The notes beneath the pieces are model-generated. The model did not search any database. It was not told the DNA's origin and saw nothing but the letters and a program-made list of their open reading frames with translations. DNA of 32,000 nt from Synechococcus sp. A15-28 (GTDB lineage: Bacteria; Cyanobacteriota; Cyanobacteriia; PCC-6307; Cyanobiaceae): the NCBI RefSeq assembly GCF_014280175.1, contig NZ_CP047931.1:1680001-1712000 (forward strand), in the 5' to 3' direction. This document shows, piece by piece, positions 9,222 to 25,228 of this stretch; position 1 is the stretch's first letter, and the number at the start of each line of letters is the position of its first letter. A program made the translations under genes and the position numbers.

Positions 9222-10082
9222 GTGATGCAGCGGGATGAGCCTGCCTCCGGATGCCTGTATCTGGTGGGCACACCGATCGGTCATCTTGGTGACCTGTCTC
9301 CGCGGGCCAAGGCGGTGCTGGCTGGGGCGACCGTGATCGCCTGTGAAGACACGCGCCACAGCGGTCAGCTGCTCAGCACTCTTCAGGCCAAGGGACGAAA
9401 ACTGTCCTTCCACCAGCACAACACCCGCACCCGTCTGCCGCAGCTGCTGCAGGCGCTGAGCGATGGCGACAGTGTGGCGGTGATCAGCGATGCCGGCCTT
9501 CCCGGCATCAGCGACCCAGGCGAGGAGCTGGCAGCGCAGGCCCGTTGCGCAGGCTTTGAGGTGATCTGCGTCCCTGGTCCTTGTGCCGCCACCACAGCCC
9601 TCGTCAGCAGTGGACTTCCCAGCGGTCGCTTCTGCTTCGAGGGATTCCTGCCGGTCAAAGGAAAGGAACGTCGACAGCGTCTGGAACAGATCGCCACAGA
9701 GCCGAGAACAACCGTGCTCTATGAAGCACCGCATCGGCTGCTGCCGCTCCTGCAAAGCCTGGCGGAGCACTGTGGTTCCGAACGCCCTCTGCAGGTGGCG
9801 CGGGAACTGACCAAGCGACACGAACAGCAGGTGGGACCCACCATTGCGGCTGCGCTGGATCACTTTCAGTCCCTGCGCCCCCAGGGGGAATTCACCCTTG
9901 TGCTCGGGGGCTGTCCAGAGCAAGCACCGTCAGAACCCGACGACCAGGAGCTGTTGGCACGGCTGCAGCAACGGATCGGTGAAGGGGCGAGCCCCAGTGA
10001 TGCAGCTCGGCAACTTGCCATCGAAACCGGCATCAGTCGTCGACGCTTGTATTCCCTGCTTCACCAGGACCCGTCAGAATGA
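9222..10082 (+). CDS. rsmI: 16S rRNA (cytidine1402-2'-O)-methyltransferase
   Basis: 286 aa with the tetrapyrrole-methylase fold motifs of RsmI: LYLVGTPIGHLGDLSPRA, IACEDTRHSGQLL and ISDAGLPGISDPG. Confidence 0.9.
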   Translation: MMQRDEPASGCLYLVGTPIGHLGDLSPRAKAVLAGATVIACEDTRHSGQLLSTLQAKGRKLSFHQHNTRTRLPQLLQALSDGDSVAVISDAGLPGISDPGEELAAQARCAGFEVICVPGPCAATTALVSSGLPSGRFCFEGFLPVKGKERRQRLEQIATEPRTTVLYEAPHRLLPLLQSLAEHCGSERPLQVARELTKRHEQQVGPTIAAALDHFQSLRPQGEFTLVLGGCPEQAPSEPDDQELLARLQQRIGEGASPSDAARQLAIETGISRRRLYSLLHQDPSE

Positions 10083-11157: not shown

Positions 11158-11231
11158 GCTCCCTTAGCTCAGCTGGATAGAGCAACTGCCTTCTAAGCAG
11201 TCGGTCGATGGTTCGAATCCATCAGGGGGCG
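11158..11231 (+). tRNA. tRNA-Arg (anticodon TCT/UCU)
   Basis: I folded this 74-nt cloverleaf by hand. Acceptor stem GCTCCCT/AGGGGGC has one G-U pair. D arm is GCTC-AGCTGGATA-GAGC. Anticodon arm is ACTGC-CTTCTAA-GCAGT. Variable loop is CGGTC, T arm is GATGG-TTCGAAT-CCATC, and the discriminator is G. CCA is not encoded. Confidence 0.93.
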
Positions 11232-11287
11232 TTAACAGTCATAACAATGGTTTTCAGCGATTTACTGGGAGCCGTTTTTTCTTGAAA
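11189..11287 (+). repeat. att repeat, left copy (3' part of the intact tRNA plus terminator)
   Basis: Identical 16-nt core, then imperfect homology to 23817-23909 running through the T arm, acceptor strand and downstream hairpin to GCCGTTTTTTCTT. Confidence 0.75.
11249..11283 (+). terminator. Putative tRNA terminator (hairpin plus T-run)
   Basis: GGTTTTCAG / CTGGGAGCC stem (with G-U pairs) followed by GTTTTTTCTT. A homologous hairpin with compensatory changes lies at 23874-23907. Confidence 0.5.
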
Positions 11288-11296
11288 ACCAACATT

Positions 11297-11320
11297 TGTG
11301 CGCAGAATTGTGCGCAGATT
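11297..11320 (+). promoter_or_regulatory. Tandem 12-mer TGTGCGCAGAAT/TGTGCGCAGATT (candidate arm-type recombinase or regulator site, left arm)
   Basis: Nearly the same 24-mer occurs at 23665-23688 in the other arm, in the same orientation. A GTTGCAA motif follows at 11351-11357. Confidence 0.45.
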
Positions 11321-11581
11321 TGACCCAAGCTCAACTACACGGGGAGTGGAGTTGCAATTTCCGCGCACTGATCGCAAGGAGCGGTACCTGCGCTGGGAGA
11401 CGACTTATCACCAGCAAGGCCACTATTCAACGCTGCATCAGCAAGCTGTCGCCACACTGGGATGACGAACAGCTTGAAGCTGTTGTATCAATGTTCAAAG
11501 AGCACGGTCTACTTTGAGGTTTTACTGCTAACACGAAAATGAGACTTAGTACTACATTGTCAACAGAACACATCCCTCTCT

Positions 11582-12025
11582 ATGGATTTTGATAAGCCAC
11601 TTAATGTAGAACTCACTGGTGCCCTAAAAGATGGATACCTGGCAGGAGAAAAGGCCAGGCAGGCCGCTAAATCACAATACGATAAGTGGAGTCATCAGTT
11701 TTATAGGTGCTACGCATTTTTTCATGAAGAAGATAGAAAAAGAATTTCAAATCCATTTTGCTCGGTATTGCATAATTTGAGTTTCAACCCACTTCCTACA
11801 GAGGCATCGCCTGACCACGTTGGGGCATATGAAAATAAGTTTGTCTATCATTTGTATAACAAGCAAAATTATCATAAGGCAAGAACCGCTATTGAGCTTG
11901 TCAAGTCAAGTCGGAGTGGATTTGACTGCATCATTGAAAGGCATTATTCGACAGAAGATGTGATTTGTTTTAGAATTGAGGAGTATACGCAGAAACGTGT
12001 ACGCGAAAAGAGAGTGTTTCTCTAA
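11582..12025 (+). CDS. Hypothetical protein (147 aa), AT-rich cargo
   Basis: Clean ATG ORF with no competing frame. The coding-like composition matches the neighbouring cargo genes. I recognise no family motif. Confidence 0.55.
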   Translation: MDFDKPLNVELTGALKDGYLAGEKARQAAKSQYDKWSHQFYRCYAFFHEEDRKRISNPFCSVLHNLSFNPLPTEASPDHVGAYENKFVYHLYNKQNYHKARTAIELVKSSRSGFDCIIERHYSTEDVICFRIEEYTQKRVREKRVFL

Positions 12026-12034
12026 CCCTTAAAA

Positions 12035-12577
12035 GTGTTTCACCTGCTAGCTGCAACTGTTGCCCTTTCTCTTGCTCTCCCAGCTACTGCAATGCCAATT
12101 AGCTTCGATCAATTTATAGAGCAGTCAGCGCTTGAGTTGAGCGAAAAGCAAGCTGCATTTAATTCAACGTTTCAGGCGGCCGTAGGCAACAACTCAAGGT
12201 ATGAATACGATCTAGTCGAAGGGTGGATTAAGTTTGTAGACATTAAAACGAACAAGGAATTGCTTAAATACAAAATAGCTTCTGTAGGTTCATACAATAC
12301 AATTCGTGGCACCTGGCAGTGGGCTTGGGCAAAAAAAGAACGCACAAAAGAAGAAATAACCTTACTCGTAAGGCAAATATCAATTCTAGCTCAGACTTTT
12401 CCTGACAATAAAGATCTATTCAACGCAAGTCCATTTAAAACAGATGAGTTCTATGGACAAGAAGTTTCAGGCGCTTTGCTTAAGCTTTTGGATGGACAAG
12501 CAATTTACAATGCAGCCGACAATGGAGAAGATAGTGAGTACTGGATTTACCTCGTCCTAGTTGAGCCAATTAACTAA
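12035..12577 (+). CDS. Hypothetical protein, possibly secreted (180 aa from GTG; alternative ATG at 12092)
   Basis: The GTG start is 9 nt after the previous stop. The N-terminus FHLLAATVALSLALPATA-MP looks like a Sec signal peptide with an AxA site. A conserved-looking Trp cluster, RGTWQWAWAKKE, is present. Confidence 0.6.
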   Translation: MFHLLAATVALSLALPATAMPISFDQFIEQSALELSEKQAAFNSTFQAAVGNNSRYEYDLVEGWIKFVDIKTNKELLKYKIASVGSYNTIRGTWQWAWAKKERTKEEITLLVRQISILAQTFPDNKDLFNASPFKTDEFYGQEVSGALLKLLDGQAIYNAADNGEDSEYWIYLVLVEPIN

Positions 12578-12625
12578 TGACAAGCAGAGCTTTGCAGCTG
12601 TCCCAATAAATCGCCGCTGATCACC

Positions 12626-12691
12626 ATGGCAATCACCACCAAGCAGCAACGTCAGCAACGCCGCAGCGAGGCTCTAGAGGTAAAACCATGA
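12626..12691 (+). pseudogene. 21-codon remnant of a 13466-type gene start, overlapping the HNH start codon
   Basis: MAITTKQQRQQRRSEALEVKP compares with MARTSRAERHRRRESALALV at 13466. Nucleotide homology over 12616-12677 versus 13458-13523 is roughly two-thirds identical by eye and ends at the shared GGCTCTAG. The stop TGA overlaps the HNH ATG (CCATGA). Confidence 0.4.
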
Positions 12692-13416
12692 AAGATCATT
12701 ATTGGTATGTAGGTCTTGACAATGATGAATTTGCTAGACGATTTAGGTCGCGTTACAAAACACTCCCTAATGCTTTATTGGGTCAAGAGCTTTACGACAA
12801 AGTTGATGCTATGGAGGAAATTCACCTTCAACATCGTGGCAAATCAGAATTTGGTAGAGCCAAAATTGCCGAGCTGTGTGGATTTTGTGCGCAAAGAGAG
12901 GATGGAACCTTCAAGCGGCCTAATTACGTGGCTTTTAATATTGCTATTGCCCATATTTCAAGACAACAGCACGGCTACAGATCTTTGGGAAGGGAAGGCT
13001 ATTTAGAATCAGATAATACTGTCATCGACGAGCGTGATATTGCATCAATGACCACTAAATACCGCCCCAGGACTGGTGGTTTTAAAGAATCTGTTATCAG
13101 TACTCACGGCTTAGAATGTCAAGTTTGTGGGATGAAGATCAAGCCCTTGATAGAAGCTGCACATATTGTTCCTGTGGCCTTGAATGGTGTGGATCATTTC
13201 AGCAATGGCATACCTCTTTGCCCTAACCACCATGCTGCTTTTGATCGATACCTATTTGCCTTTGATCCAGTTGATCAATCAGTGGTCTTTAAAGATGGCT
13301 TGAATTACTCGGTGCTTGGAATCACCAAGCCAAAGTTAGTGGCCAACGTCAGTACTGAAGCTTTGAAAATCCGGTATGACCTTTTTCAGGAGAGCAACTG
13401 TGGCGGAGTGAGCTGA
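12688..13416 (+). CDS. HNH endonuclease (HNH_2-like, restriction-type)
   Basis: 242 aa. The C-terminal motif is CQVCGMKIKPLIEAAHIVPVALNGVDHFSNGIPLCPNHHAAFDRYLF, which follows the CxxC...AHI.P...NG..LC..HH..FD pattern. Confidence 0.8.
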   Translation: MKDHYWYVGLDNDEFARRFRSRYKTLPNALLGQELYDKVDAMEEIHLQHRGKSEFGRAKIAELCGFCAQREDGTFKRPNYVAFNIAIAHISRQQHGYRSLGREGYLESDNTVIDERDIASMTTKYRPRTGGFKESVISTHGLECQVCGMKIKPLIEAAHIVPVALNGVDHFSNGIPLCPNHHAAFDRYLFAFDPVDQSVVFKDGLNYSVLGITKPKLVANVSTEALKIRYDLFQESNCGGVS

Positions 13417-13465
13417 ACCCTTGTTTGGCGCCACAGAGACACATCGATTTTTTAGGGGCTGATCC

Positions 13466-13852
13466 ATGGCCAGAACCAGCAGAGCTGAACGCCACAGACG
13501 CCGTGAATCAGCGTTGGCTCTAGTCAGTCAGGGAAAGGGTTTCAGCGACGTTGTGACCGCACAGATGTCGCAATGGGGGTGCTCACGTTCATCTGCCCAA
13601 CGGGACTGTCGTTGGGCGCATGATCAGCTCCAACTGAGCATTGATTCACACGACGCTCAACACCTGATCTGCCACATAGCGACAAGCCTTCAACGCATCT
13701 CTCTAAAGGCCGAAGAGTCAGGCCAGTTCGCAGCTGCTGTCGGTGCCCAGAAGATGATTTACGAGCTTCTGCTGCGCCGGAAGCTTGACCATGAAGCTGA
13801 CAAAGCCAGTCGTCCTGGCTGGGGCTATCGCCACGGCAACACCAGAGCCTGA
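13466..13852 (+). CDS. Hypothetical basic helical protein with HTH-like segment (128 aa); GC-richer backbone gene
   Basis: The Arg-rich N-terminus is followed by GFSDVVTAQMSQWGCSRSSAQRDCRWA, which is HTH-like. Partial paralogs lie at 12626 and 23948-24246. A small-terminase-like or regulator role is speculation. Confidence 0.55.
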   Translation: MARTSRAERHRRRESALALVSQGKGFSDVVTAQMSQWGCSRSSAQRDCRWAHDQLQLSIDSHDAQHLICHIATSLQRISLKAEESGQFAAAVGAQKMIYELLLRRKLDHEADKASRPGWGYRHGNTRA

Positions 13853-14000
13853 CAGTGAGTTAACAGCGCGCTTAAACGCGACAGCGCCCTGCTTGTGGTG
13901 CGTACTGGCCCGGGGCTTGGACACCCCGGGATTTCTTCTGCAATATCAGGACTGGCTTAAAATTGAGGAGCTGTTTCTTGATAAGTTTCGGGTTTTATGA
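13785..14000 (+). CDS. Possible small ORF (71 aa) translationally coupled to the TPR gene
   Basis: It overlaps the 3' end of the 13466 gene in another frame, and its stop overlaps the TPR ATG (TTATGA at 13996-14000). There is no family signal, so it may be spurious. Confidence 0.25.
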   Translation: MTMKLTKPVVLAGAIATATPEPDSELTARLNATAPCLWCVLARGLDTPGFLLQYQDWLKIEELFLDKFRVL

Positions 14001-14737
14001 ATCGGCCTATCAGCATCTCATTAATGCTTGGACTTCTACTTCAGGCATGTGGGGCGTCGTCTTTTGTGCATTTGCGGATAGCCGAGGAAAGCTTGTATAA
14101 AAAAGGAAAAGAATCAATAGTGATCGAAGAATCGACTAAGGCATTAGATATCGAAGAAAGTGCAGAGGCTTATTACATGAGAGGGGTCGCTCATAATGAT
14201 CTTGATAATTTCGCAAAGGCCCAGGAAGACTTGTCCAGCGCAATTAGAATGAATAGCAAAGTAGCTAAATATCACTACGTTCTAGGAAACAACTATGATG
14301 ACCAGAATGAGTTCAAGTCAGCCATCAACTCTTATAGTCAAGCCATAGAAATCCAGCCTAAGCACATAAATGCCATTGGTAATAGGGCCCTTGCCAAGAG
14401 AAGTATTGGAGATTTGAATGGCGCGATTCAGGACTTCTCGATGGCTATAAACATCGATCCTATGCATGCAAATAATTTGCGTATGAGAGGCAATCTCAAA
14501 TATCAATTAAATGATTTTAGCTCAGCGCTAGATGACTACAATAAGGCTGCTTCTATTGACTCTAAAATAGCGGATGAAAAAGCTTGGCGCTCCGATATTC
14601 ATGCGGATGTCTTGTTTGACAGAGGGTATGCCCTGTTCAGACTTGAAAGAATAAGTGAGGCATGCAGTGACTGGGAAGAATCCCTTGCATTGGGAAATGA
14701 TGATAGCTCAATACCCATTAAGTACTACTGCCAATAA
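13997..14737 (+). CDS. TPR-repeat lipoprotein
   Basis: Signal peptide with a lipobox, LLLQAC-G. It is followed by several 34-residue TPR-like units (AYYMRGVAHNDLDNFAKAQEDLSSAIRMN, YHYVLGNNYDDQNEFKSAINSYSQAIEIQP and others). Confidence 0.75.
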   Translation: MNRPISISLMLGLLLQACGASSFVHLRIAEESLYKKGKESIVIEESTKALDIEESAEAYYMRGVAHNDLDNFAKAQEDLSSAIRMNSKVAKYHYVLGNNYDDQNEFKSAINSYSQAIEIQPKHINAIGNRALAKRSIGDLNGAIQDFSMAINIDPMHANNLRMRGNLKYQLNDFSSALDDYNKAASIDSKIADEKAWRSDIHADVLFDRGYALFRLERISEACSDWEESLALGNDDSSIPIKYYCQ

Positions 14738-14865
14738 TGGTTTGATGATGTTGACTGCAACGGGTCCTTTCTCTTGCGCCCTTTGTGGGTCATCCGAAGG
14801 CGCGTTGATCCTTTAGACAGTGGTTGTCAAAATATTGGACATTTAGAGACACCAGGAGACAGGCA

Positions 14866-15078
14866 ATGCAACTCATGAGTGTGAGTGCCGCTGCAAGGCA
14901 CCTTGGATATAAAAGCCGTTCGCAGCTGTACAAGCTGATGAATGACGGCTGGCTAGATGCCCATGTGCATGTCCAGATGCCTAGTGGTCAGCGTTTGCTC
15001 GATGTTGATGGACTATATAAGACCTTGCAGGGCACATGTCAGTGGCGCGTCGATAGCGTTTTTTTAAGACCCGATTAG
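14866..15078 (+). CDS. Small HTH DNA-binding protein (AlpA/excisionase/MerR-like, 70 aa)
   Basis: An ATG preceded by GGAGA at -9 gives MQLMSVSAAARHLGYKSRSQLYKLMNDGWLD, a typical HTH_17-like pattern. It is convergent with the helicase-nuclease operon. The ORF-track TTG start at 14824 is less likely. Confidence 0.5.
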   Translation: MQLMSVSAAARHLGYKSRSQLYKLMNDGWLDAHVHVQMPSGQRLLDVDGLYKTLQGTCQWRVDSVFLRPD

Positions 15079-15085
15079 AGAGGGA

Positions 15086-15448
15086 TCAATATTCGTAAAA
15101 CGCATCCTCCTGGAAGTCTCTATATTCACTTGCGCCTACGCACAAAGGGTCATCGCATCCATATAGCTCAGCGACTTCATCAGGGCCAAGCTCTCTCCCA
15201 TCTTGTGTGATTAGCAATAGGAGTGTGATCTCCTCCCATGTTTTATGGTGTTCTTCAAGTTCAGAACCGGCTTCATTAAATTCATGTTCCTCGAATTGTG
15301 GCTTGGGGTTTAAGTGTGGATAGAGTTCACTTGCGGCATTGTCATGCCAATAAAAGTCATAAAAATCTCCCTCTTTAAAGAAGAAAGTCTGGCCATGAAG
15401 AACAATAGAATCCAGACCCTTCATTGATGATTCAGTGGATTGAGTCAT
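15086..15448 (-). CDS. Highly acidic hypothetical protein (120 aa), last gene of the helicase-nuclease operon
   Basis: I count 28 Asp/Glu versus 6 Lys/Arg. It is aromatic-rich (FYDFYWHD, AFYEY). Its ATG overlaps the upstream ORF's stop (TAATG at 15446-15450). No competing ORF on either strand. Confidence 0.6.
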   Translation of the reverse strand: MTQSTESSMKGLDSIVLHGQTFFFKEGDFYDFYWHDNAASELYPHLNPKPQFEEHEFNEAGSELEEHHKTWEEITLLLLITQDGRELGPDEVAELYGCDDPLCVGASEYRDFQEDAFYEY

Positions 15449-15579
15449 TAAATGCTTTCCAATGTTTGGGCCATGTCAATAACCAATAGAGTCATTCTCC
15501 GCTCCAATCCATACGAGTTTTGAATAATATCTCTTGAAAAGGGAAAGTCATCATCTTCGGGGGGCACGAGCTTTGCCAT
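15448..15579 (-). CDS. Possible micro-ORF (43 aa) bridging the large gene and the acidic protein gene
   Basis: Internal Met of the 85-aa ORF gives MAKLVPPEDDDFPFSRDIIQNSYGLERRMTLLVIDMAQTLESI. It overlaps the end of the large ORF by 29 nt and is stop/start coupled to the next gene. Coding status is uncertain. Confidence 0.25.
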   Translation of the reverse strand: MAKLVPPEDDDFPFSRDIIQNSYGLERRMTLLVIDMAQTLESI

Positions 15580-18500
15580 CGCAATGTAGATCTTCACAGG
15601 GAAAATAAAAGCCAAATCTACTTTTCGCATAAACCGTTCTCGAACCACATTTAGGGCATTTAGGATTTTCTGATTGTGCCCAATCGACCATCGATGAGGG
15701 CGCAACTGGTCCAGGAAGTGAAAGAGATTTAGCCAATTCGAGAGCTATTCCAGGCTGCCTTACCAGCAACATTGACTCAAGCGTAGAACCAGCAAATGAA
15801 AGTGGATTTAGAGAACCATACCAGGCCAAGTCATCATCAATGAGCACAGCTTTTTGGTGAAGCTTGTTCCTCTGCTCAACCACAACACCTCTATCTCTTA
15901 TCAAGCGAACAAGATCAAATGATTTACTGGGATCAGACCTACCAAAGCTTCCATTTGTTTGATTGGTTGGCAGCACAAACTTTACCGTCACACCATCCTC
16001 AATAGGTTTTCGAAGGACAGTGAGAACCTCATCAACACGAGAAGGAGTGAAAAATCCAGAGAATATAACTATCGTATTTTTTGCCTCTTCAATGTTCTTA
16101 TATAACAGGGGAAAGAACGACGTCTCATCCACCATTCCATCCTGAATAGAGGTCTTAGCGACCGAAATGTGATTTACAGAGAGTTGAGCCTCAATAGCGC
16201 CTAACTCGCTTTTATCTACAAGGGCTCTTGCATCAACGACACGTCCCTTCATCTGCATAGAAAAGAGCACCTCCCGTAAGAAAGAGTAGTTAGACAATTG
16301 CTTATCAAGAACATTCAGATCAGCCAAAACAACCAATGACTTCTTGGCACGACTTATTGCTACATTTAAATTCTTGGCACCTTCATCCTGCGGCTTAATT
16401 GAATTAATAAAAGGGGCCAGGAAGTTCGATTCAGACTGTGCAACTACAGTATCAAACACAAGAAGATCACGTTCGTCACCCTGGAATTGGTGCACAGTAC
16501 CCACCGAGGTAATAACCTTTTGATCCTGTTCCGTAAGCAACTTAGAGAACAAGCGCGATTGAGCTGCGAAAGGTGTGCAATACCCTAAAGAAAGATTATT
16601 GGAATCAGCTACTTGTAGCAAAAGCTTTCTAGCGATATAAGCATGAAGAAGGTTTATCTTGCCGCCAGAAGCAGGCGTAGACGAAAACGAAAGCAAAGGC
16701 GAGGTGTCAATTAAAACAAGCTCCCCTAGCGAATCCAAAAGAGGATGGATAATGTTTATAGGATCAGACTTCAAACCCGAATGGAGCTGGTTGTTGTACA
16801 TATAGCCGGATATGAGATTACATATCGAAGGCTGCATTCGATACTGAGTGTCTAGAAATCCCAAGTTTTTTGACAAGCCAGAACCAGACCTAACGTCATC
16901 CTCGATACCACATACCTCAAAGATACTCTTACCGAGAATATCCTTAATCAACTTGTTGTCAGTTTGACAAATTGGTGAGAGCTGAGAAAAATCACCGGAC
17001 ACTATCACTCGCTTTTTAGCAATTGATGCTGCAACAAATAGCATTGGGAGAGAGGCCATCGAGGCCTCATCAATGATCACATTATCGTAAAATCCAAGAT
17101 CACCAAGGTTCATACATGTCTTAGCAAGGGTGGCACCAACAACAAAAGAATTTTCTATAATCGTCTGCTTAAGTGCCTGAAGAGATTCTTCAAGCTTTCT
17201 ACATCTAGAATCAATATCTCCAACATCTGCTTTAATCTTTAAAACTCTTGCATTCAAAGAATCCCTATCAATACCGGAGAGCTGTCTAGAAACTTCAACA
17301 TTACGAGTGGCAAGGTCTTCCGATAGATCTTTTAACCGCAGCAGCTTAGATCGATAGCCATCAAGGGTAGAATTTTTATGCAATATATCTTTCTCTAATG
17401 CATCTATCTGTCTTCTAAGAGTTTCGGGAGTTCTCCCGAAGACACCACCTAATCCACCTCGCCCCGAGCTTCTATCATTGTATTTTTGTCGAAGTTCATT
17501 GGCAGAATCTTCTAAAGATGATATCTCATCTCGTAGACTCTTTGCTAGAGCTTGAGTCTGCAAAAACTCTGATTTTGACCTCTGGATTTCAACTCCTACA
17601 CGATCAAGCTCATCAAACAAAGAAGATTTATCTAACAAGTCACTACTTTGATCAATAAGGTGACTCTTTCTGGACAGAAGCTGGGCGATTTCCTCTTTAA
17701 ATTCAAGTCCCAATTTCTCGGAGATACCCTCCACAGTCACTTGCTGTCGATGGTCTCTAATCAAGTCTTTATGACTAATATTGCCAATGCGAACAAACTT
17801 ATTTTCATCAACATACGACCTTGAATCCTCGCGACAACATTTCAAGAAGACCTGATCAACTGCCATATTTGTATTTGAACAGATCAAGGTCTTCTCTCCC
17901 GCATCGCAAAGATTTTTAATTACAGAAGTAAGAGTCTGCGTTTTTCCTGTCCCTGGAGGGCCCCAAAGAATTGAAAAATTATAACTTAAAGCCTTTTCAA
18001 TAAATGAGGCTTGAGAAGAATTCAGCTTCTCCAAATGAGAAGCCTTGATAGGTTCATCCAGTAATTGATATTGATTACTCAAAACGTTGGAAGCAAATTC
18101 AAGTAGCAATCCTTTCTTGGTCGACTTCTTATCCTTATCTCCCTTTCTTGAAATACCACATTCCCTCGCCAGCAAATCACGAATAAACATATCCATAGCG
18201 GTATCGTCAACGGATATGTCACCGCCGTTAAGGTGCTCACCCAAGTCCTCCTCTACTGTCAATGTCACTTCATTGCTAGAGGCGCCACTAATAGCAACAA
18301 CTCGCCCATCTGTTTTTCCATTGGCAGTCCTCAAAACCACTGATGAACCAGGGAAAAGCTCGTCAGCTCGGGAAGACACATTTACAATGTATGCAATGGA
18401 GTCTTCTGCTGAAGTAAGAGCAACAACTTTCCTACCTTGTTGAAAGGAGATTGATTTAGAACTCTTCTTCTTCGAGTCAGATATTCGCTGGTTAAGTGCA

Positions 18501-19024
18501 TGATAAAAACGCTCCGCCCAAGTCTTTCTAGAAATCTCAGAAACATCAAGCCCATCAACCGAACTTTCCTCTAAATTAAAAACCAAAGGATCGGGAGTAT
18601 CCATAAGCTCTGGCCCAGATTTACGAATTTCATGGATTGATATTTCCTTTTTTTCTGGCAATGGATGCTTTTCAAGATAATTACTCTCGGCCTTTGGAAT
18701 TAATGGATTATCAGCAGCAGGTTTTTTTTGAGCGGCATTATGGCCTAAATTCTTTTTGTGCCCTTCTTGCTTGTCTACTTGGTTCCGTTCCTCTCCTTCA
18801 TGAAAACTAGCCGCTGTAGAGCCAGGGGCAGTAGCATTCCTTGAAAGTTGCTTTTCAATTTTCTTTTTGATTGTCGATAGTTTTCTCTCAGCTCTTCTAC
18901 GTTTGGATATCTCCTCAAGAAGGAGCCGGAGTTTATTTGTATCAGCAGAGGCAAGTAGCTGCTCGGCCTGCTCAATGATTTCGTTGGTCCCAAGAGTTTT
19001 GTATGGCCTACTTGGTGATGCCAC
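15551..19024 (-). CDS. Fusion protein: Upf1-like SF1 helicase (AAA_11/AAA_12-type) + PLD-family (single HKD) nuclease + topoisomerase-type C4 zinc ribbon
   Basis: 1157 aa.
- Helicase motifs: I GPPGTGKT (aa 355-362, nt 17939-17962); II IIDEAS (nt 17060-17071); III VSGDFSQLSP; IV QYRM; V HQFQGDERD; VI VAISRAKKSLVV.
- A heptad-rich insert of about 190 aa spans aa 436-625.
- HKD motif HQKAVLID lies at aa 1056-1063 (nt 15836-15859), followed by GSLN.
- Zinc ribbon CPKCGS...FPCEDLHC lies at aa 1123-1148 (nt 15581-15658).
- The GTG start is the first codon after an in-frame stop. Confidence 0.9.
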   Translation of the reverse strand: MASPSRPYKTLGTNEIIEQAEQLLASADTNKLRLLLEEISKRRRAERKLSTIKKKIEKQLSRNATAPGSTAASFHEGEERNQVDKQEGHKKNLGHNAAQKKPAADNPLIPKAESNYLEKHPLPEKKEISIHEIRKSGPELMDTPDPLVFNLEESSVDGLDVSEISRKTWAERFYHALNQRISDSKKKSSKSISFQQGRKVVALTSAEDSIAYIVNVSSRADELFPGSSVVLRTANGKTDGRVVAISGASSNEVTLTVEEDLGEHLNGGDISVDDTAMDMFIRDLLARECGISRKGDKDKKSTKKGLLLEFASNVLSNQYQLLDEPIKASHLEKLNSSQASFIEKALSYNFSILWGPPGTGKTQTLTSVIKNLCDAGEKTLICSNTNMAVDQVFLKCCREDSRSYVDENKFVRIGNISHKDLIRDHRQQVTVEGISEKLGLEFKEEIAQLLSRKSHLIDQSSDLLDKSSLFDELDRVGVEIQRSKSEFLQTQALAKSLRDEISSLEDSANELRQKYNDRSSGRGGLGGVFGRTPETLRRQIDALEKDILHKNSTLDGYRSKLLRLKDLSEDLATRNVEVSRQLSGIDRDSLNARVLKIKADVGDIDSRCRKLEESLQALKQTIIENSFVVGATLAKTCMNLGDLGFYDNVIIDEASMASLPMLFVAASIAKKRVIVSGDFSQLSPICQTDNKLIKDILGKSIFEVCGIEDDVRSGSGLSKNLGFLDTQYRMQPSICNLISGYMYNNQLHSGLKSDPINIIHPLLDSLGELVLIDTSPLLSFSSTPASGGKINLLHAYIARKLLLQVADSNNLSLGYCTPFAAQSRLFSKLLTEQDQKVITSVGTVHQFQGDERDLLVFDTVVAQSESNFLAPFINSIKPQDEGAKNLNVAISRAKKSLVVLADLNVLDKQLSNYSFLREVLFSMQMKGRVVDARALVDKSELGAIEAQLSVNHISVAKTSIQDGMVDETSFFPLLYKNIEEAKNTIVIFSGFFTPSRVDEVLTVLRKPIEDGVTVKFVLPTNQTNGSFGRSDPSKSFDLVRLIRDRGVVVEQRNKLHQKAVLIDDDLAWYGSLNPLSFAGSTLESMLLVRQPGIALELAKSLSLPGPVAPSSMVDWAQSENPKCPKCGSRTVYAKSRFGFYFPCEDLHCDGKARAPRR

Positions 19025-19216
19025 TCAGGAATGGGTCTTTCTTGTAACCATCTTCGCTGAAAGAGTTTCGAGTGCGCATCCCACCTTTGACAAGGCTTGA
19101 CATTACTGGTGTCACCCCGAACCAACTGCGCTGCAACTGATCCGGGGGAATCTGACAAGAAAACAAGGATTCAGCACCGCTCACAACAGTGGGTGTTGCA
19201 AGCGGTGGGAGCAGTG

Positions 19217-20719
19217 TCAAAACCGTCGTTTCTTTGAAACTGACTGCGCTGCAATCGATTCCAGCTGACAGACGGGTTGTTTTTTGCTGTTAGTGCTGTC
19301 ACCAGGCATTGGCCGCAGTGACCTGTAGGTCAGCGAGCTGGTGTCCTCAACAACTTCGCCGTAACCGTGATCGCAGAGCATCTCCACGCAGGCAGCAAAG
19401 TCCTTGGTTTTGTAGGTGCGCCCACCCTTCCACGTCGCTTTGGCGTGGGAGAGCTTGTAGGTCACCTCACCAAGCTCCTGGCTAACGGAGTTGATGTGCT
19501 GCATGTACCGCAGCGCCCTGTCAGCAGACTGGTTGTGGAACAGCTCTGTCTCTTGGAGACATTGATCAACGATTGCCGCTGCCTGACGCATCAGATCAAC
19601 GCTGATCTCTTGATCTTCACCAACCCACAGCATGTGCAGGTTGCCCGCAAGCCGAAGCGCATGGGCACCAGCTTTGCCCCACATCGCTGAAATCACCTTT
19701 GGCGTTGATGGATCAATCGCCTTGAGATTCCGGGGCATAAACCAGCGGTTGTAGAAACGGCGGGCTTCCGCTGAGAGCTTGTATACGCGTGGTGGTGATT
19801 TGTGGAAGCGGTCGGCGTATTTAGCCAGCACCTTGCGGGCTTCATGCAACGCGGCTTCCTCTTCTGGGGTTTCATCCTCATCACGCAGGTTGAGCCCAAC
19901 CAGCGGCACCTTCACGCAGAGCAATCGTGCAAATTTGCCGGTGGCATCTTTGCCATTGATCAGCTCTGTCAAAGCATCCGGCTGGATGTTGCCGAACACC
20001 GAAACCATGCTGCCGTCGTAATGGCGAGCACCAGCAACAACGCCGTAGCTGGTGTTGCCACCACCATCGAACAGCTCCAGAAACTGCCCTTCAGCAGTGC
20101 CGCGCCCACGCTTGGTGTCAGCGTCCATTGCCCTTAGCAAGGCGCTGAACTCTTCACGCTTGATCAGCGCACCAAGGCGTTTTGCCTCGTAGTGAGGGAG
20201 CCAAACATCAAGAGCTTCAGGCGTGTACTGCTTGATGTGTGGGTACAGCGGAAGCGGCTTAGGTGGCCTGTCTTCCTTTTTCTTGATGGCCTTGCAGTCG
20301 TGTTCCCACTGCACAACCATGCGCTCGTGATGCTCTTTGGCATCAAGGCGAATGTGGGCTGATGGGGCATCAATCAGCTTGGTGGTGTGACCTGTCTTGG
20401 ACAAACCAGTAGGGCCTACAGAGGCGATAAACAGGTTCATCGGCACGCTGTACCGGGCGCTGCATTTGACGCGGTTGCCGAGCTTCAACAGTCCGGCACA
20501 ACCAACCAAAAAGATCAGCGTTGCCGTTAGGGCGTCAGCTGGATCTTCCTGGTTGATCAGCTCAACAGCAGCAGCCAGATCGGGTGGCAGCAGGTTGTCG
20601 TAGGTAAAGGCATCCCTACCAGCAGCCAACTCAATGACCCTGGATGCACCTTCAACGCCCTCTTCAGACATAGTGATTTCATTGCGGTCAACAGCCGCCT
20701 GAATTGCCTCAGTCGTCAT
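19217..20719 (-). CDS. DUF3987-like P-loop NTPase (putative replicative helicase of the element)
   Basis: 500 aa from the ATG at 20719; the ORF-track start at 20899 would overlap the primase gene by 190 nt. Walker A is VGPTGLSKTG (nt 20393-20416). The downstream ALIKREEFSALLRAMD...LELFDGG...VSVFGNIQPD pattern resembles DUF3987/P4-type helicases. Its start overlaps the primase stop by 11 nt. Confidence 0.7.
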   Translation of the reverse strand: MTTEAIQAAVDRNEITMSEEGVEGASRVIELAAGRDAFTYDNLLPPDLAAAVELINQEDPADALTATLIFLVGCAGLLKLGNRVKCSARYSVPMNLFIASVGPTGLSKTGHTTKLIDAPSAHIRLDAKEHHERMVVQWEHDCKAIKKKEDRPPKPLPLYPHIKQYTPEALDVWLPHYEAKRLGALIKREEFSALLRAMDADTKRGRGTAEGQFLELFDGGGNTSYGVVAGARHYDGSMVSVFGNIQPDALTELINGKDATGKFARLLCVKVPLVGLNLRDEDETPEEEAALHEARKVLAKYADRFHKSPPRVYKLSAEARRFYNRWFMPRNLKAIDPSTPKVISAMWGKAGAHALRLAGNLHMLWVGEDQEISVDLMRQAAAIVDQCLQETELFHNQSADRALRYMQHINSVSQELGEVTYKLSHAKATWKGGRTYKTKDFAACVEMLCDHGYGEVVEDTSSLTYRSLRPMPGDSTNSKKQPVCQLESIAAQSVSKKRRF

Positions 20720-21770
20720 GACGACGCCTCCAACCGTTATTGATGGCGTGGTGAAAAAGCGTTGCTGCCGTGATCTGAGCGCCACCACTGCGCACGATCT
20801 GGCTGATGTCCCAACCGCACTGCTTTGAAGGCGACCATGCCTCCAGCAGATCAACAGCGGTTTCATCGCTGTAACCGGCTTGATGGCAGGCATCCACAAC
20901 TGCCCAGCAGATGTTGCGGTGCTGGTTGTAGTTGCCTTGCCCAGCTACACGTCGCGGGATGGCAGACAGTGCTTCGCCGATCTCAGAGAGGGTGCTGTCT
21001 GGCCCGGAATAAACCTTCCGTGGACGTTCAATTGGCGGAGGTAAAGGCGGCAGCGACTCTTCAAACAGCTCAACGGGATAACGCTTGAAGCAGCCGGGCT
21101 TGATGACTGATGGCCAGCCAACTTTCAAGTCCTGGCTGATGTACCAACCACCAGGCAGGCGCATCAGACGGCTTGGATCCTTGATTGCTGTGTCGCTATT
21201 GCAGTGCTTGATCAACCGCTGCATCAACGGACGCCAGCGTTGAACTGAGATCGGCTGCTCCAGCGTCCAGAAGCTGTGGACTGATTTGCCACCGGTTGCG
21301 ACGCAAACCGTTGGATCAGGCAGACCAACCTCTGCTGGCCTAGCGAACTGTTGCCGCATGGGAATGTCGTCCCACTCAACAAACAGCGACTGACAGCTGG
21401 TTATGTCGGCGGCTTTGTCGCCACCAAGGTTTGGCACGGCGTAAAGGCCGTAGCCCTTGGCTTGAGCAAGCGGGAAGTCTTGCCAGTCATCTTTGAGCCA
21501 ACCGCTGTAAGCCCTGCCATTGCCACGCGGTAGTGCCCGGTAGCGGACATCAGCAGGATCACGGTTGAGGTAATGGCACCACCTTTCAGCCTGTTGCCAG
21601 TCGAAAGGGAAAAAATGCGCACCAAACTGCGCACAATCCTTACCCGAGGGCCACCAATCTTCAGGCTCCGGCCAGCATGTCACCGGAGTTACCAACTGCT
21701 GAAATAGCAGTGGGTCACCTAAACTGGGTTCAATCCACGGACCCAGGTCGGAGCTAATTGTTCCGGCCAT
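20709..21770 (-). CDS. Archaeo-eukaryotic-type primase-polymerase with PriCT-like C-terminal domain
   Basis: 353 aa. AEP-like motifs are LFVEWDD (aa 129-135), TGGKSVHSFW (aa 159-168) and DPSRLMRLPG (aa 198-207). The C-terminal NICWAVVDACHQAGYSDETAVDLLEAWS segment resembles PriCT domains. Confidence 0.7.
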   Translation of the reverse strand: MAGTISSDLGPWIEPSLGDPLLFQQLVTPVTCWPEPEDWWPSGKDCAQFGAHFFPFDWQQAERWCHYLNRDPADVRYRALPRGNGRAYSGWLKDDWQDFPLAQAKGYGLYAVPNLGGDKAADITSCQSLFVEWDDIPMRQQFARPAEVGLPDPTVCVATGGKSVHSFWTLEQPISVQRWRPLMQRLIKHCNSDTAIKDPSRLMRLPGGWYISQDLKVGWPSVIKPGCFKRYPVELFEESLPPLPPPIERPRKVYSGPDSTLSEIGEALSAIPRRVAGQGNYNQHRNICWAVVDACHQAGYSDETAVDLLEAWSPSKQCGWDISQIVRSGGAQITAATLFHHAINNGWRRRHDD

Positions 21771-21772
21771 TT

Positions 21773-22003
21773 TTATGCCTGCTCTTGACGACGGAGCATT
21801 CCAAGCCGGTGAAACTTTTCACGGCAGCGATCAACATCCCAAGTAATTGGGCTGGTCTTGTGTTGGCCAAGGAAATAATCCTCACCACCAATCAATGGAC
21901 CACCTTTGGTGTCCATTTGGCGTTTTAGGTGGCCTTGGCTGATTGCCATCACGTTGGCAGCATCAACCGTCTTCAAAACCAATCGTGGCTTCGTTAATTC
22001 CAT
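21773..22003 (-). CDS. Small HTH protein, excisionase/regulator-like (76 aa)
   Basis: The VDAANVMAISQGHLKRQM helix-turn-helix is followed by a W-containing tail (SPITWDVDRCREKF). It ends 2 nt before the primase ATG and is the first gene of the replication operon. Confidence 0.55.
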   Translation of the reverse strand: MELTKPRLVLKTVDAANVMAISQGHLKRQMDTKGGPLIGGEDYFLGQHKTSPITWDVDRCREKFHRLGMLRRQEQA

Positions 22004-22307
22004 TGGAATCAGAGGAATACAGAACTGTTTGCGGATTGCAGAGCTGCTATTCCTGACCCCACCGGCGTAACCGGTGACTCACACAGTTGAAATCGGGGGT
22101 GGAACCTCCCGATAGCCCGGTCAGTGTTTCGCCGTAGACGGAACTGAATTGCAAAGCGACTTGATTGCCGCTGATCAATATTTACAGGATGTCGCAACCG
22201 ATTGCAACTGAATTACCACCATAGATGGTGTCAACGATCCAAATCTGGCCTTTTTCGGGCCTTTTCAACACTATTTCTGGGTTTATCAACGGGGCCTGTG
22301 GACAAAC

Positions 22308-23633
22308 TCAGGGGGCAGGGATGGTGGACACACCAGCGTTCGTTTTGGCCAAAGCTGCATCCATTGATTCGCGATCAAGCCAGTGGCCGTAATGCTTTAG
22401 ATGCGTCAAAAGCGAATGCCGCAGCCACTTTGCGGCCACCCGTTCGTGCATGTGATTCTCAGATTCAATGTGAGCCCTGAAGGCCCAGGCGTGCCTCAAG
22501 CTGTTCGCCGTGACATCGGGGTTGCCTGCCTTGATTACGTCACACCAGTAAGGAAAACGATTCAGCTGCTGACCAACCTCAGCGCCAACACCTTGAAAAC
22601 TATTTTTCTCGCTGATCATGGCGATCTGATTTCTGACAGCCTTGGGCAACCGCACCAATCCTGATTCGAAGGCAGCCAACATCTGCTGCGCTTCACCAGC
22701 AGGACGACCAGCAATTGCAAGCGGCATCACTGGATCAGGTGCCTTAGCTGGTTTGAACATGTTGCGGTGGTTCCGCTTGATGTGGCCGATGGTTGCCTGA
22801 CCATCTTTGACCTGCAAAACGGAAACTTCACCAGGCCGCAAACCCAGATAACTGATCAATCCAACGCAAAGCTTGAGGTCGTGCCGACCTGCCTCTTCCA
22901 AAGCATCCAACAGGTCACTGATCTGATGGCTCTTCAACGGTGGCGTTGCCTTGGCAGCTTCAACCTCAGCTGTTGCCGTACCAACCAGCTCACGCATCAG
23001 TTCCGTATCTGCTGCACCTGATGGAGGCACAAACCGCGCAGGCAGCATTTGACGATTAGTTGCCCACTTCAGAAACGCCACGCAGTCCTTCAGCGCCCTG
23101 GCACGCCCAGTGCCACCTGCAGCGACAACAGCGTTGCCATCAGCGTCATAGAAGTGCTGAGCGGCGTAAGCCCTCAAAGCAGCTTCAGCGTTGCGTGGTT
23201 TTGGAGCCGTGCCAACGGTGTTCAGGAGCTTCTGCAGCCGTGCAGAGGTCCACTTAATGGTGTTGGGCCTGCAGCCGCTTTTCGTCGCCATAAAGGCTTC
23301 AAGGGCTGTCTTCCATGCCTTCTCACCTGACCTAACGGTTGCGGCTGCTTGCTTTGGATCAGCAAGGGAATCGCCGTACTGCTTAACCGCTTTTTTGAGG
23401 GGCAGGTTCTGCTGCTCCATCAGGTTTCTGATGGCAGTGACCCAGTTCAAGATTGGTGTGCCGGAGTCCTTGCGCCAGGGCAACGGCAGGTATGCCGAAG
23501 ATCTGCTGTCGTCTTCAAACCGGCGGGTCAATTGCACCGTGCCTCGGTGGTCACGAATGGACCAGCCAAAGCCGTGTTCAGCTTTCAGCTGCCTTCTGAC
23601 GGTGACGAACCACTGTTCTCGCTTTGCGGGCAT
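22308..23633 (-). CDS. int: Tyrosine recombinase / phage-type integrase
   Basis: 441 aa from the ATG at 23633 (MPAKREQWF...). Box I is LGLRPGEV. The C-terminal SLRHAWAFRAH ... WLRHS..THLKHYGHW gives the R..HxxR..H..Y catalytic pattern. It lies adjacent to the att repeat. Confidence 0.88.
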   Translation of the reverse strand: MPAKREQWFVTVRRQLKAEHGFGWSIRDHRGTVQLTRRFEDDSRSSAYLPLPWRKDSGTPILNWVTAIRNLMEQQNLPLKKAVKQYGDSLADPKQAAATVRSGEKAWKTALEAFMATKSGCRPNTIKWTSARLQKLLNTVGTAPKPRNAEAALRAYAAQHFYDADGNAVVAAGGTGRARALKDCVAFLKWATNRQMLPARFVPPSGAADTELMRELVGTATAEVEAAKATPPLKSHQISDLLDALEEAGRHDLKLCVGLISYLGLRPGEVSVLQVKDGQATIGHIKRNHRNMFKPAKAPDPVMPLAIAGRPAGEAQQMLAAFESGLVRLPKAVRNQIAMISEKNSFQGVGAEVGQQLNRFPYWCDVIKAGNPDVTANSLRHAWAFRAHIESENHMHERVAAKWLRHSLLTHLKHYGHWLDRESMDAALAKTNAGVSTIPAP

Positions 23634-23664
23634 GACCGACTGCCTAGGGGCAGCTGCTCGGGTC

Positions 23665-23730
23665 TGTGCGCAGAATTGTGCGCAGAATGGTTGCAACAGT
23701 CAAGAACGGGTTGCAACTTCTGTGCGCATG
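23665..23730 (+). promoter_or_regulatory. Integrase-upstream control region: 2x TGTGCGCAGAAT, 2x GGTTGCAAC, third TGTGCGCA
   Basis: Lies 32-97 nt upstream of the integrase ATG (23633, minus strand). Motifs are at 23665-23688, 23689-23697, 23709-23717 and 23721-23728. Confidence 0.45.
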
Positions 23731-23816
23731 GCCTGACAGCTAGCCCAGTTACACCAATAGGTTTTTCCAGTGATTACGAGAATTTGACCCCGTTACCAGC
23801 ACCTACTGACCAATTA

Positions 23817-23909
23817 CCTTCTAAGCAGTCGGCCGTAGGTTCAAATCCTACAGGGGGCGCTAGTTATACCAACGGTTCTCAGCCAAAGCTGGGGGCCGTT
23901 TTTTCTTAA
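23817..23909 (+). repeat. att repeat, right copy (displaced tRNA-Arg 3' fragment 23817-23859 plus terminator-like hairpin)
   Basis: CCTTCTAAGCAGTCGG-CC-GTAGG-TTCAAAT-CCTAC-AGGGGGC-G. This is a valid anticodon-3'/variable/T-arm/acceptor half with no 5' half upstream. Confidence 0.75.
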
Positions 23910-23947
23910 ATGTCACTTTTGGCACTCCAGACGGTACTCCGAAAAAA

Positions 23948-24460: not shown

Positions 24461-24518
24461 ATCCGCTGCCATCGTTAGCGCATGAAACCCCTTGATCGAC
24501 TCGGCAACTGAGGCGGCC

Positions 24519-24552
24519 AAAAAGAAACCCCCGCCAAAGGCAGGGGTTTTTG
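24519..24552. terminator. Bidirectional terminator hairpin between convergent micro-genes
   Basis: CCCCCGCC-AAA-GGCAGGGG is an 8-bp stem with one mismatch. It is flanked by A-rich AAAAAGAAA on the 5' side and TTTTT on the 3' side, so a T-run follows the stem on both strands. Confidence 0.55.
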
Positions 24553-24675: not shown

Positions 24676-25079
24676 TTGAGGTTCCTCAGAAATCCAGGTC
24701 CCCGTTCCTTGGCCTGGTGATCTGCGCCTTGCAGAAGCAAGGTGAACGTTGTCAGTAGCGGTTGCTACAACTCCTTTACAGAGGGGGCGTCAACACCCTT
24801 GTCGTTCAGGCGGATACATATCGTGCTTTTGGCTCGCCCTGCTCAGTGGCTTGCGCAAAAAGAAACCCCGGAGAGATCCCCGAGGTCAAAAATCCTTTCG
24901 GCTGATCCCCATCATCCGGCCGGACCCGATAAAGCTAACCTCATTGGACTCATTTGTGCCACGAGGAACTGATTTCCTCAATTGTGTATTGAAGTTCTGT
25001 TCCGACTTTGATGACACTATATGTGGGGCTAGTCAGCGCGAGGATGCTGCGCCATATTTGGATCTCCCCCATCACCCTG

Positions 25080-25109: not shown

Positions 25110-25200
25110 GTGCCCTAAAGCACTAGGGATGGTGCCATGAGCGGCCATTGCGGTCCAAAGACACAGCTTGGATCCACTGACCCTGTGGATAACTGAGGTC

Positions 25201-25228
25201 AAAAAGAAACCCCCGCCAAAGGCAGGGG
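25201..25228 (-). terminator. Second copy of the AAAAAGAAACCCCCGCCAAAGGCAGGGG element (terminator-like on the minus strand only)
   Basis: Identical 28-mer to 24519-24546. On the minus strand the hairpin is followed by TTTCTTTTT. It lies 129 nt downstream of the candidate minus-strand gene 25357-25533. Confidence 0.4.

Follow-up and report, generated by a model that had tools for sequence, protein, structure and literature searches.

A probable tycheposon-type element with putative defence cargo in the tRNA-Arg(UCU) gene of a marine Synechococcus

Introduction

Tycheposons, the proposed main engine of genomic island plasticity in Prochlorococcus, are associated with seven island tRNAs, tRNA-Arg(tct) among them, and their islands include tandem and decayed copies; the integrase is usually a tyrosine recombinase of a tycheposon-specific lineage (Hackl et al., bioRxiv 10.1101/2020.12.28.424599). 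The same study describes tycheposons that resemble phage-inducible chromosomal islands (PICIs) and were never seen there with extra cargo, and it found viral fractions to be enriched in tycheposons. For Synechococcus, earlier work had noted no more than 'tycheposon-like' insertions, which use tRNA-Phe(GAA) and precede the phycobilisome rod region (Grebert et al. 2022, PMC8995045). Here, a 12,628-bp element inserted in the tRNA-Arg(UCU) gene of Synechococcus sp. A15-28 is described, based on a chromosomal stretch of 32,000 nucleotides (contig NZ_CP047931.1, positions 1,680,001 to 1,712,000), which is referred to below as the window. The evidence makes it quite probable that this is an intact, recently polymorphic tycheposon-type element in a cultured Synechococcus, the lineage being judged by a profile match and a shared neighbour gene. 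The tycheposon study itself later appeared in Cell.

An element delimited by its empty site

The window holds a single tRNA gene, tRNA-Arg(TCT), which is recognized by both ARAGORN and the Rfam tRNA model (67.6 bits). A 16-nt core, CCTTCTAAGCAGTCGG, occurs in exactly two copies in the window, one within this gene and the other 12.6 kb downstream (Table 1), and none of 100 shuffles gave two matches. Both cores are embedded in an imperfect direct repeat (11180-11286 and 23808-23910, approximately 80% identity) that spans the tRNA 3′ half and the terminator hairpin, just as an initial annotation made from the sequence alone had noticed. Among species-representative genomes, the gene flanking the tRNA is nowhere closer than 81% in amino acid (aa) sequence, and a same-species empty site was therefore not available there; a metagenome scan supplied one. 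An unoccupied site should run from the 5′ part of the tRNA through the core into a 3′ half of the attR type, and this junction was matched in 11 metagenome contigs. One of these, LXNH01012471.1 (L031), is identical to the window over 300 of 300 nt left of the core and 200 of 200 nt right of the attR core, and its whole right part agrees at 2567 of 2597 positions; the element is absent, and one intact tRNA-Arg(TCT) is present (ARAGORN). In a three-way alignment, this contig tracks attL as far as the core and attR beyond it, with the switch within the 16 nt.

The empty-site junction thus defines the inserted DNA as 11205-23832 (equivalently 11189-23816), 12,628 bp in length and located inside tRNA-Arg(UCU), and the crossover falls inside the core, which extends from the anticodon loop to the variable loop. 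The unoccupied site, attB, reads …GCAACTG-core-CCGTAGGTTCAAATCC…. A discrete integrative element at this tRNA, together with an empty site carrying a single tRNA that ends in the 23833-23909 sequence, had been predicted at the outset, and both are borne out; the proposed size of 12.6 kb also stands, whereas the proposed span of 11189-23909 has to be corrected, because 23833-23909 is host DNA. Given that the immediate flanks of the empty site are 100% identical to those of the window, the gain or loss of the element must have been very recent.

Comparison of the two repeat copies reveals the direction of the exchange. Their T-stems, GATGG/CCATC (11205-11231) and GTAGG/CCTAC on the attR side, differ by compensatory changes, and both copies therefore look like working tRNA halves. 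The terminator right of attR is of a native type that also follows the tRNA in three other loci (L001, L003 and L005) and is identical in the empty-site contig; the terminator right of attL, succeeded by TGTGCGC motifs, is of an element type found after the tRNA in L010 and, twice, in L002. The exchange is classical, the right side of attR being native and that of attL element-borne. The present tRNA-Arg(UCU) is a chimera of the host 5′ part, the core and an element-donated 3′ half with its own T-arm allele. The tRNA is kept intact in this way: the element provides a new 3′ half and terminator, and the native 3′ half is displaced to attR.

Table 1. Features of the element and its boundaries, in window coordinates
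Feature	Position	Strand	Basis or remarks
tRNA-Arg(UCU), functional, chimeric	11158-11231	+	ARAGORN, Rfam, comparison with L031
attL core, 16 nt, anticodon loop to variable loop, crossover region	11189-11204	+	Exact repeat; switch in L031
P′ arm	11205-11330	+	Donated tRNA 3′ half; terminator 11246-11284; TGTGCGCA at 11297 and 11309
orf73, adjoins P′ arm	11296-11517	+	57% aa in L002, same position after partial tRNA copy
orf147	11582-12025	+	
DUF6882 protein	12035-12577	+	
HNH_2 endonuclease	12688-13416	+	
orf128	13466-13852	+	72% aa homolog in L002
TPR protein, hydrophobic N-terminus	13997-14737	+	
84-aa helix-turn-helix (HTH) protein	14824-15078	+	Homologs in tRNA-Arg islands of L002 and L005
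orf120, downstream of helicase-PLD gene	15086-15448	-	Outside the 15515-19090 cassette homology
1157-aa Upf1-like superfamily 1 (SF1) helicase with C-terminal PLD nuclease and Zn ribbon	15551-19024	-	
DUF3987 P-loop protein, putative replicative helicase	19217-20719	-	Pfam DUF3987 6.5e-27; PHROG 'DNA helicase'; Walker A GPTGLSKT
AEP-type primase-polymerase, 353 aa, predicted C-terminal helical domain	20709-21770	-	PHROG primase matches, alignment, AlphaFold/Foldseek
76-aa protein, putative excisionase / recombination directionality factor	21773-22003	-	Gene position
Tyrosine recombinase, 441 aa from MPAKREQW, inward-facing	22308-23633	-	PHROG_1, alignment, AlphaFold/Foldseek
P arm	23634-23816	+	TGTGCGCA at 23665, 23677 and 23721
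attR core	23817-23832	+	Exact repeat; L031
Displaced native tRNA 3′ half (GTAGG/CCTAC) and native terminator, host DNA	23833-23909	+	Identical in L031

Integrase and putative arm sites

The integrase gene lies at the attR end within an open reading frame (ORF) of 22308-23696 on the minus strand, the true start being at 23633, and its product matches the PHROG_1 integrase profile (1e-11). In an end-to-end alignment with 15 relatives, R266, K286, R380, H406 and Y415 are invariant; the R, K, R and H residues and the Tyr nucleophile are thus kept, inactivating substitutions at catalytic positions having been named in the initial annotation as counting against its reading. The AlphaFold model (pLDDT 81) finds full-length lambda Int (1z1b_B) as its best Foldseek match, followed by Cre, XerH and IntI (probability at least 0.96), and the predicted N-terminus comprises a three-strand sheet and a helix, like an arm-binding domain. 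With this catalytic set and this predicted C-terminal fold, the protein is best described as a divergent lambda Int-like tyrosine recombinase.

An exact 22-nt repeat, TGTGCGCAGAATTGTGCGCAGA, is located just inside both element ends. attP was rebuilt by joining the two ends, with offsets counted from the core; the junction reads …GACCAATTA-CCTTCTAAGCAGTCGG-TCGATGGTTCGAATCC…, and five TGTGCGCA motifs are found at offsets -152, -140, -96, +108 and +120. A closely similar geometry is present in the attP of a metagenomic relative, L033, where the motifs are at -152, -140, -96, +104 and +116; the two integrases are 68% identical, and the intervening sequence has diverged. The distance from the core to the integrase start is likewise kept, at 193-195 nt in L033, L034, L041, L044 and the window. 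We infer that the TGTGCGCA motifs are putative arm-type sites for the N-terminal domain of the integrase (residues 1-75), the P arm holding three of them and the P′ arm the other two. A promoter-like site for the integrase gene, recognized by consensus match only, is positioned on the minus strand at 23703-23675 and overlaps the tandem TGTGCGCA pair. Elsewhere, an inverted imperfect pair of the arm motif, TGTGCGCAGTTTGGTGCGCA, was noticed within the primase gene (21611-21636, minus strand), where it was flagged as terminator-like, with a hairpin followed by a T-run.

The replication module

Reading inward from attR, the integrase gene is followed by the small Xis-like (excisionase-like) gene, the AEP primase gene and the DUF3987 gene, and the same order is observed in L033, L041, L043 and L044. 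The 76-aa gene abuts the primase gene, and the DUF3987 ORF, which runs to 20899, probably starts at an ATG at 20719, with the start overlapping the primase stop by 11 nt. This close packing had been noticed in the initial annotation, which was also right about the order of the modules, the presence of replication genes, the AT richness of the cargo and a Synechococcus-like host. The DUF3987 gene is kept after the primase gene in L033, L041 and L044.

The primase has invariant E132, D134, D135 and H165 in its family alignment, and its AlphaFold model (pLDDT 83) matches the AEP domain of the S-2L PrimPol (6zp9_A) with an E-value of 2e-16, a TM score of 0.90, an rmsd of 1.9 and 33% identity, with further Foldseek matches to RepB′ (3h20), LigD-Pol and CAPP. 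By tblastn, too, cyanophage S-2L is the best phage relative (34%). Predicted fold, acidic motif I and the sxH motif II together identify the protein as an AEP/PrimPol, and the model supports an AEP fold with a C-terminal helical domain. PriCT, relaxase and conjugation domains were not found in Pfam and PHROG scans of the window ORFs; of the 'AEP primase-PriCT' gene initially proposed, the AEP part is upheld by structure prediction and the PriCT part, lacking a family-level match, is not.

The 76-aa protein shares 68% of its residues with counterparts that adjoin the integrase in L033 and L034, and resembles, at 35% identity (E 3e-8), the product of an 84-aa gene downstream of a Prochlorococcus integrase (L039). 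Its position makes it a candidate excisionase (Xis): the conserved gene beside the integrase stands as first described, and the HTH/Xis family assignment has no family-level match behind it. A 232-aa gene following the tRNA-Ala-type integrase of L017 was considered as a counterpart and rejected as not homologous.

Cargo and its junction with the backbone

The remainder of the element, approximately 7.7 kb of low GC content, is cargo. Its most prominent gene encodes the 1157-aa helicase-PLD protein, which matches Pfam AAA_11 (4.6e-35), AAA_12 (9e-24) and PLDc_2 (4e-8) as well as the PADLOC models MkoA (2e-51) and MkoC (4e-38), and in which the Walker A sequence GPPGTGKT, the DEAS box and the HKD motif HQKAVLID are intact. 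Mokosh type II is a single gene that combines an N-terminal Upf1-like COG1112 helicase with a C-terminal PLD nuclease (Millman et al., bioRxiv 10.1101/2022.05.11.491447), and the predicted domains of the helicase-PLD gene, a single protein with both active sites intact, correspond to this architecture. The plus-strand cargo (11582-15078) was annotated by Pfam, PHROG, PADLOC and NCBIfam scans and by tblastn; an HNH endonuclease is encoded there, and together with the helicase-PLD protein it likely serves in phage defence. The label 'defence-type cargo', given to this region initially, has HMM matches and domain architecture as its basis. The P′-proximal orf73 has no Pfam or PHROG match.

Two homologies meet at one point. 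The backbone is homologous to L041 (83% nt identity) from 23903 down to 19093, where the homology ends, and homology of the helicase-PLD cassette to the unrelated contexts L036-L038 (86% nt identity) is limited to 15515-19090, which places the backbone/cargo junction at approximately 19090. The cassette is a self-contained single-gene unit.

Convergent gene orientation and uneven GC content could also be read as signs of a composite, in which two fused elements, a plus-strand block at 11.2-15.1 kb and a minus-strand block at 15.1-23.8 kb, have lost the att site between them. In L002 and L005, the tRNA-Arg islands do contain genes homologous to orf73, orf128 and the gene for the 84-aa HTH protein with no backbone in view, and tandem arrays exist, as illustrated by the two cores of L002. 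However, neither an internal core nor a partial tRNA is found in the element, the whole block is missing from the empty site, and orf73 directly follows the element-type P′ arm in L002 as well, so that it belongs to the P′-proximal end of the element family. A composite origin is accordingly considered rather unlikely.

Relatives, mobility and the tycheposon assignment

By profile search, the integrase family extends into Prochlorococcus: the profile collects 998 representatives at E ≤ 1e-3, and a cluster with a Prochlorococcus protein is matched at E 1e-84. The corresponding Prochlorococcus locus (L039, GC 0.30) comprises tRNA-Thr(GGT), the integrase, the homolog of the 76-aa gene and a helicase, and a tandem motif with 12-bp spacing is located approximately 30 nt upstream of the integrase gene. 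No relative of the integrase was detected in IMG/VR or in 50,697 INPHARED phage genomes. A tRNA-adjacent relative in Prochlorococcus and none in phage genomes fit the claim of a distinct tycheposon lineage, as far as a profile search rather than a tree can tell, and the integrase relative at tRNA-Thr(GGT) with its shared small downstream gene supports the tycheposon assignment made in the initial annotation. In further agreement with the tycheposon description, the element occupies an island tRNA-Arg(TCT) with a partial tRNA copy at a variable locus and has an empty site; the integrase faces inward at attR, with the small gene and the replication genes directly after it; and the cargo, judged by gene content, would fall under local adaptation or phage interference. 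For the hallmark genes, the comparison went by class, and the primase and the helicase fall into categories named in the tycheposon paper.

In metagenomes, the clusters at 95% identity contain 198 members for the integrase and 145 for the primase, and a 78%-identical integrase (P0003) is encoded by Synechococcus A15-24. L033 is a 7,686-nt contig from sample ERZ6864471 whose exact 141-nt terminal repeat gives a 7,545-bp circular assembly; beyond the genes for the integrase, the Xis-like protein, the primase and the DUF3987 protein, it holds just five small genes and an attP that includes part of a tRNA, without host DNA. The tRNA-Arg allele of this attP differs from that of the window (CAGCCGG, GTTGG/CCAAC) and agrees with the tRNA found in other lineages of Synechococcus (L010, L015). 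'Self-replicating', as the element was first called, finds its grounds in the gene content and in this one circular assembly of a relative, from which we infer that the A15-28 copy may excise and replicate.

Several observations nevertheless weigh against an intact, mobile tycheposon-type element. The window integrase has no match to Pfam PF00589, a family matched weakly by 11 of its 15 relatives, and the first His of its HxxR motif is N377, with Tyr in distant members. The 76-aa protein has neither a Pfam match up to E 10 nor, with a three-sequence alignment, a PDB profile match. No replication origin was identified, the only candidate being a weak 22-nt repeat family at 19046-19259, and the repeats in L033 are unrelated to it. 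An exact pattern search of IMG/VR for the attP junction of the element (23816|11205-type) returned nothing, and the L033 circle is supportive, not decisive, because it belongs to a 68%-identical relative and because a tandem array could assemble alike.

Other loci illustrate how such elements accumulate and decay. Synechococcus sp. AG-670-B23 (L002) has two att cores, at 6385-6400 and 9864-9879, 3.5 kb apart and downstream of tRNA-Arg; the first segment carries a homolog of the 84-aa HTH gene and no integrase, and the second core is followed by the element-type P′ arm and the homologs of orf73 and orf128. From its sequence, this locus reads as a tandem array whose distal part lies beyond the range covered. 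In L043, at approximately 1786-2170, a decayed core, CCTCAGAAGCAGTCAG, adjoins a 75%-identical integrase gene, and a good tRNA 3′ fragment is found approximately 190 nt further out; att sites of the family thus appear to have decayed or accreted here. The two cores of L002 and the decayed att of L043 correspond to the tandem-and-decay pattern described for tycheposon islands. More distant are five metagenome contigs of GC approximately 0.60 that look like Synechococcus/Cyanobium (L017-L021), in which a 39%-identical integrase gene is divergent beside a full-length tRNA-Ala(GGC). The cargo that comes next is of the MmeI restriction-modification type, and VapE-like and Prim-Pol genes close the far end. 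These contigs appear to represent a sister family of elements that uses a second tycheposon-type tRNA and has its replication module at the other end. The sole IMG/VR match to the arm-motif pattern (L040) was discarded as a GC-rich, unrelated palindrome with no shared genes.

The order of integrase, small gene, primase/helicase and cargo also raises the possibility of a PICI- or P4-like phage satellite, two classes that the initial annotation had named for their module order. Such a satellite would be induced by a helper cyanophage, replicated by its own primase and helicase and packaged in helper capsids. The closest relation of the primase being to the cyanophage S-2L PrimPol, and the PICI-like tycheposons and viral-fraction enrichment reported by Hackl et al., would be in line with this lifestyle. 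It is not sustained, however, by the gene content: Pfam and PHROG searches revealed no capsid, terminase (terS included), Sid/Psu-type, packaging, interference, relaxase or conjugation gene, the packaging and interference scan covering ORFs of at least 60 aa, and no genes for hijacking helper capsids. Nor does it agree with the absence of the attP from IMG/VR and of integrase relatives from IMG/VR and the phage genomes, or with a cargo of approximately 7.7 kb, a type of load that Hackl et al. never saw in PICI-like tycheposons. A satellite lifestyle is consequently regarded as very unlikely. To our knowledge, no helper phage has been reported for the element.

That the insertion is instead a fixed, immobile remnant of an old integration event is highly improbable, since the degenerate att and motif copies nearby (26098-26119 in the window, L043), the missing attP in IMG/VR and a locus that is a variable island in all relatives are outweighed by backbone ORFs that are all intact, conserved catalytic residues, a 16-nt core and a 22-nt arm repeat that are exact at both ends, identical empty-site flanks and the well-populated metagenomic clusters.

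A further, separate idea concerns transport. T4-like cyanophages have a tRNA-Arg(UCU) gene of their own. Nine metagenome contigs (L022-L030, GC 0.38-0.42) agree exactly with the native attB of A15-28 over 42 nt, the whole 16-nt core among them; in the two examined, L022 (3660-3735) and L027 (10026-10101), it lies within a tRNA-Arg(TCT) gene, and both are T4-like cyanophage-like fragments with nrdA, nrdB, primase and tRNA arrays. Only the tRNA is common to these nine contigs and the element, and an integrase is absent from them. tRNA-Arg(TCT)-like sequences were also matched in 228 'Synechococcus phage' and 50 'Cyanophage' records. That the integrase additionally uses cyanophage tRNA-Arg(UCU) as attB, by which the element would ride in phage particles or damage the phage, is a long shot; if true, the use of attB in phage genomes would connect the defence cargo of tycheposons to the problem of how they are transported.

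For a tycheposon-type element, the following course can be proposed. The lambda Int-like recombinase would bind the core through its catalytic and core-binding domains and the five TGTGCGCA arm sites (three P, two P′) through its N-terminal three-strand/helix domain; the 76-aa protein would probably direct excision, and the excised circle would probably be replicated by the AEP primase-polymerase and the DUF3987 P-loop protein. Cargo may be swapped at the fixed junction just downstream of the replication module, at approximately 19090, and in the present copy the Mokosh type II-like helicase-PLD protein and the HNH nuclease would likely confer phage defence.

Host and surrounding island

The helicase-PLD cargo protein matches a protein of Synechococcus sp. 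A15-28, a clade III marine strain, at 100% identity, and the host chromosome is, by sequence, that of a marine Synechococcus of clade III, either A15-28 or a strain nearly identical to it. Throughout marine Synechococcus, the left-flank gene and tRNA-Arg keep their synteny. The distance from the tRNA to the Band-7/DUF389 genes (30.1-31.8 kb in the window) is approximately 0.8 to approximately 8 kb in the relatives and approximately 19 kb in the window; the stretch downstream of tRNA-Arg is a standing island, variable in all relatives. The chromosome left of the tRNA has a GC content of 0.62-0.65; the value is 0.40-0.50 between 11.5 and 19 kb and approximately 0.55 over the backbone at 19-23.9 kb. 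The segment at 23.9-27.6 kb is present in the empty-site contig and constitutes older island material.

This older material has features of its own. A Glutamine-II riboswitch aptamer (Rfam RF01704, 60 bits) is located at 24693-24751 on the minus strand, upstream of a small minus-strand ORF starting MTLTYRGQKYDQQ, with a terminator near 24515-24546; being present also in the empty-site contig, the riboswitch is outside the element. The terminator-like sequence GGCCAAAAAGAAACCCCCGCCAAAGGCAGGGG occurs in three copies (24515-24546, 24853-24884 and 25197-25228) at a spacing of approximately 340 nt, two of them 97% alike, which suggests a tandem series of small transcription units. Approximately 2.3 kb past attR, a degenerate (73%) copy of the 22-nt arm repeat at 26098-26119 may have been left behind by a related element at an earlier time.

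Significance and comparison with known systems

The locus is a clean, delimited Synechococcus example, with exact attL, attR and attB, a rebuilt attP with putative arm sites, a circular relative and a backbone/cargo junction. With exact att sites, the circular relative and the junction at hand for a cultured strain, integration, excision and replication become directly testable. It also shows a single-gene Mokosh-like cassette carried by a tycheposon-type element, and an element overwriting the T-arm allele of its host tRNA. New are the details, namely the att sites, the arm-site geometry, the Asn in HxxR, the S-2L-like PrimPol, the Mokosh II-like cassette with its junction and the T-arm replacement; the findings refine known biology and overturn nothing.

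P4-like satellites and PICIs share with the element their size, site-specific integration at tRNAs or other sites, the succession of integrase, regulator or Xis and primase/helicase, and accessory defence genes; unlike them, the element is devoid of capsid-redirecting, terminase and packaging genes. Its primase, an AEP PrimPol, and its DUF3987 protein are separate, whereas P4 alpha joins a primase of another type to its helicase in one protein. The resemblance to lambda resides in the predicted integrase fold, including the N-terminal arm-binding-like domain, in a core flanked by repeated arm-type motifs and in a small gene adjoining the integrase gene as candidate Xis. In contrast to lambda, the element lacks phage genes and has its core inside a tRNA gene, its integrase has only marginal sequence similarity to known integrases and Asn or Tyr in place of the HxxR His in its family, and the motifs are putative binding sites of the integrase. 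With Mokosh type II, the cargo gene has in common the single-gene architecture, the intact Walker A and HKD motifs and the MkoA and MkoC matches, but the protein is longer by approximately 330 residues at its N-terminus and carries a Zn ribbon at its C-terminus, and the MkoC model matched only over the C-terminal part of the model.

The insertions described by Grebert et al. (PMC8995045) are likewise found in marine Synechococcus, with a distal tyrosine recombinase followed by a tRNA remnant and with variable cargo that includes defence genes; they differ in their tRNA and, compared by description, were reported without an empty site, arm sites, a replication module or a circular form. From the tycheposons of Prochlorococcus, the element is set apart by its Synechococcus host, by an integrase only 26% identical to the Prochlorococcus one and by a cargo of defence-type nuclease-helicase rather than nutrient acquisition genes. 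The integrase gene here is distal to the intact tRNA, beside the remnant, and diverges from the tRNA fragment of attP, whereas in Prochlorococcus the integrase gene directly follows the tRNA in the same orientation. Despite these differences, the element has the tycheposon arrangement of an inward tyrosine recombinase at one end, a small replication module beside it and then cargo; it targets the same tRNA-Arg(tct) in a persistent variable island with related tandem and decayed loci; and its integrase family and small downstream gene are those of the tRNA-Thr(GGT) locus of Prochlorococcus.

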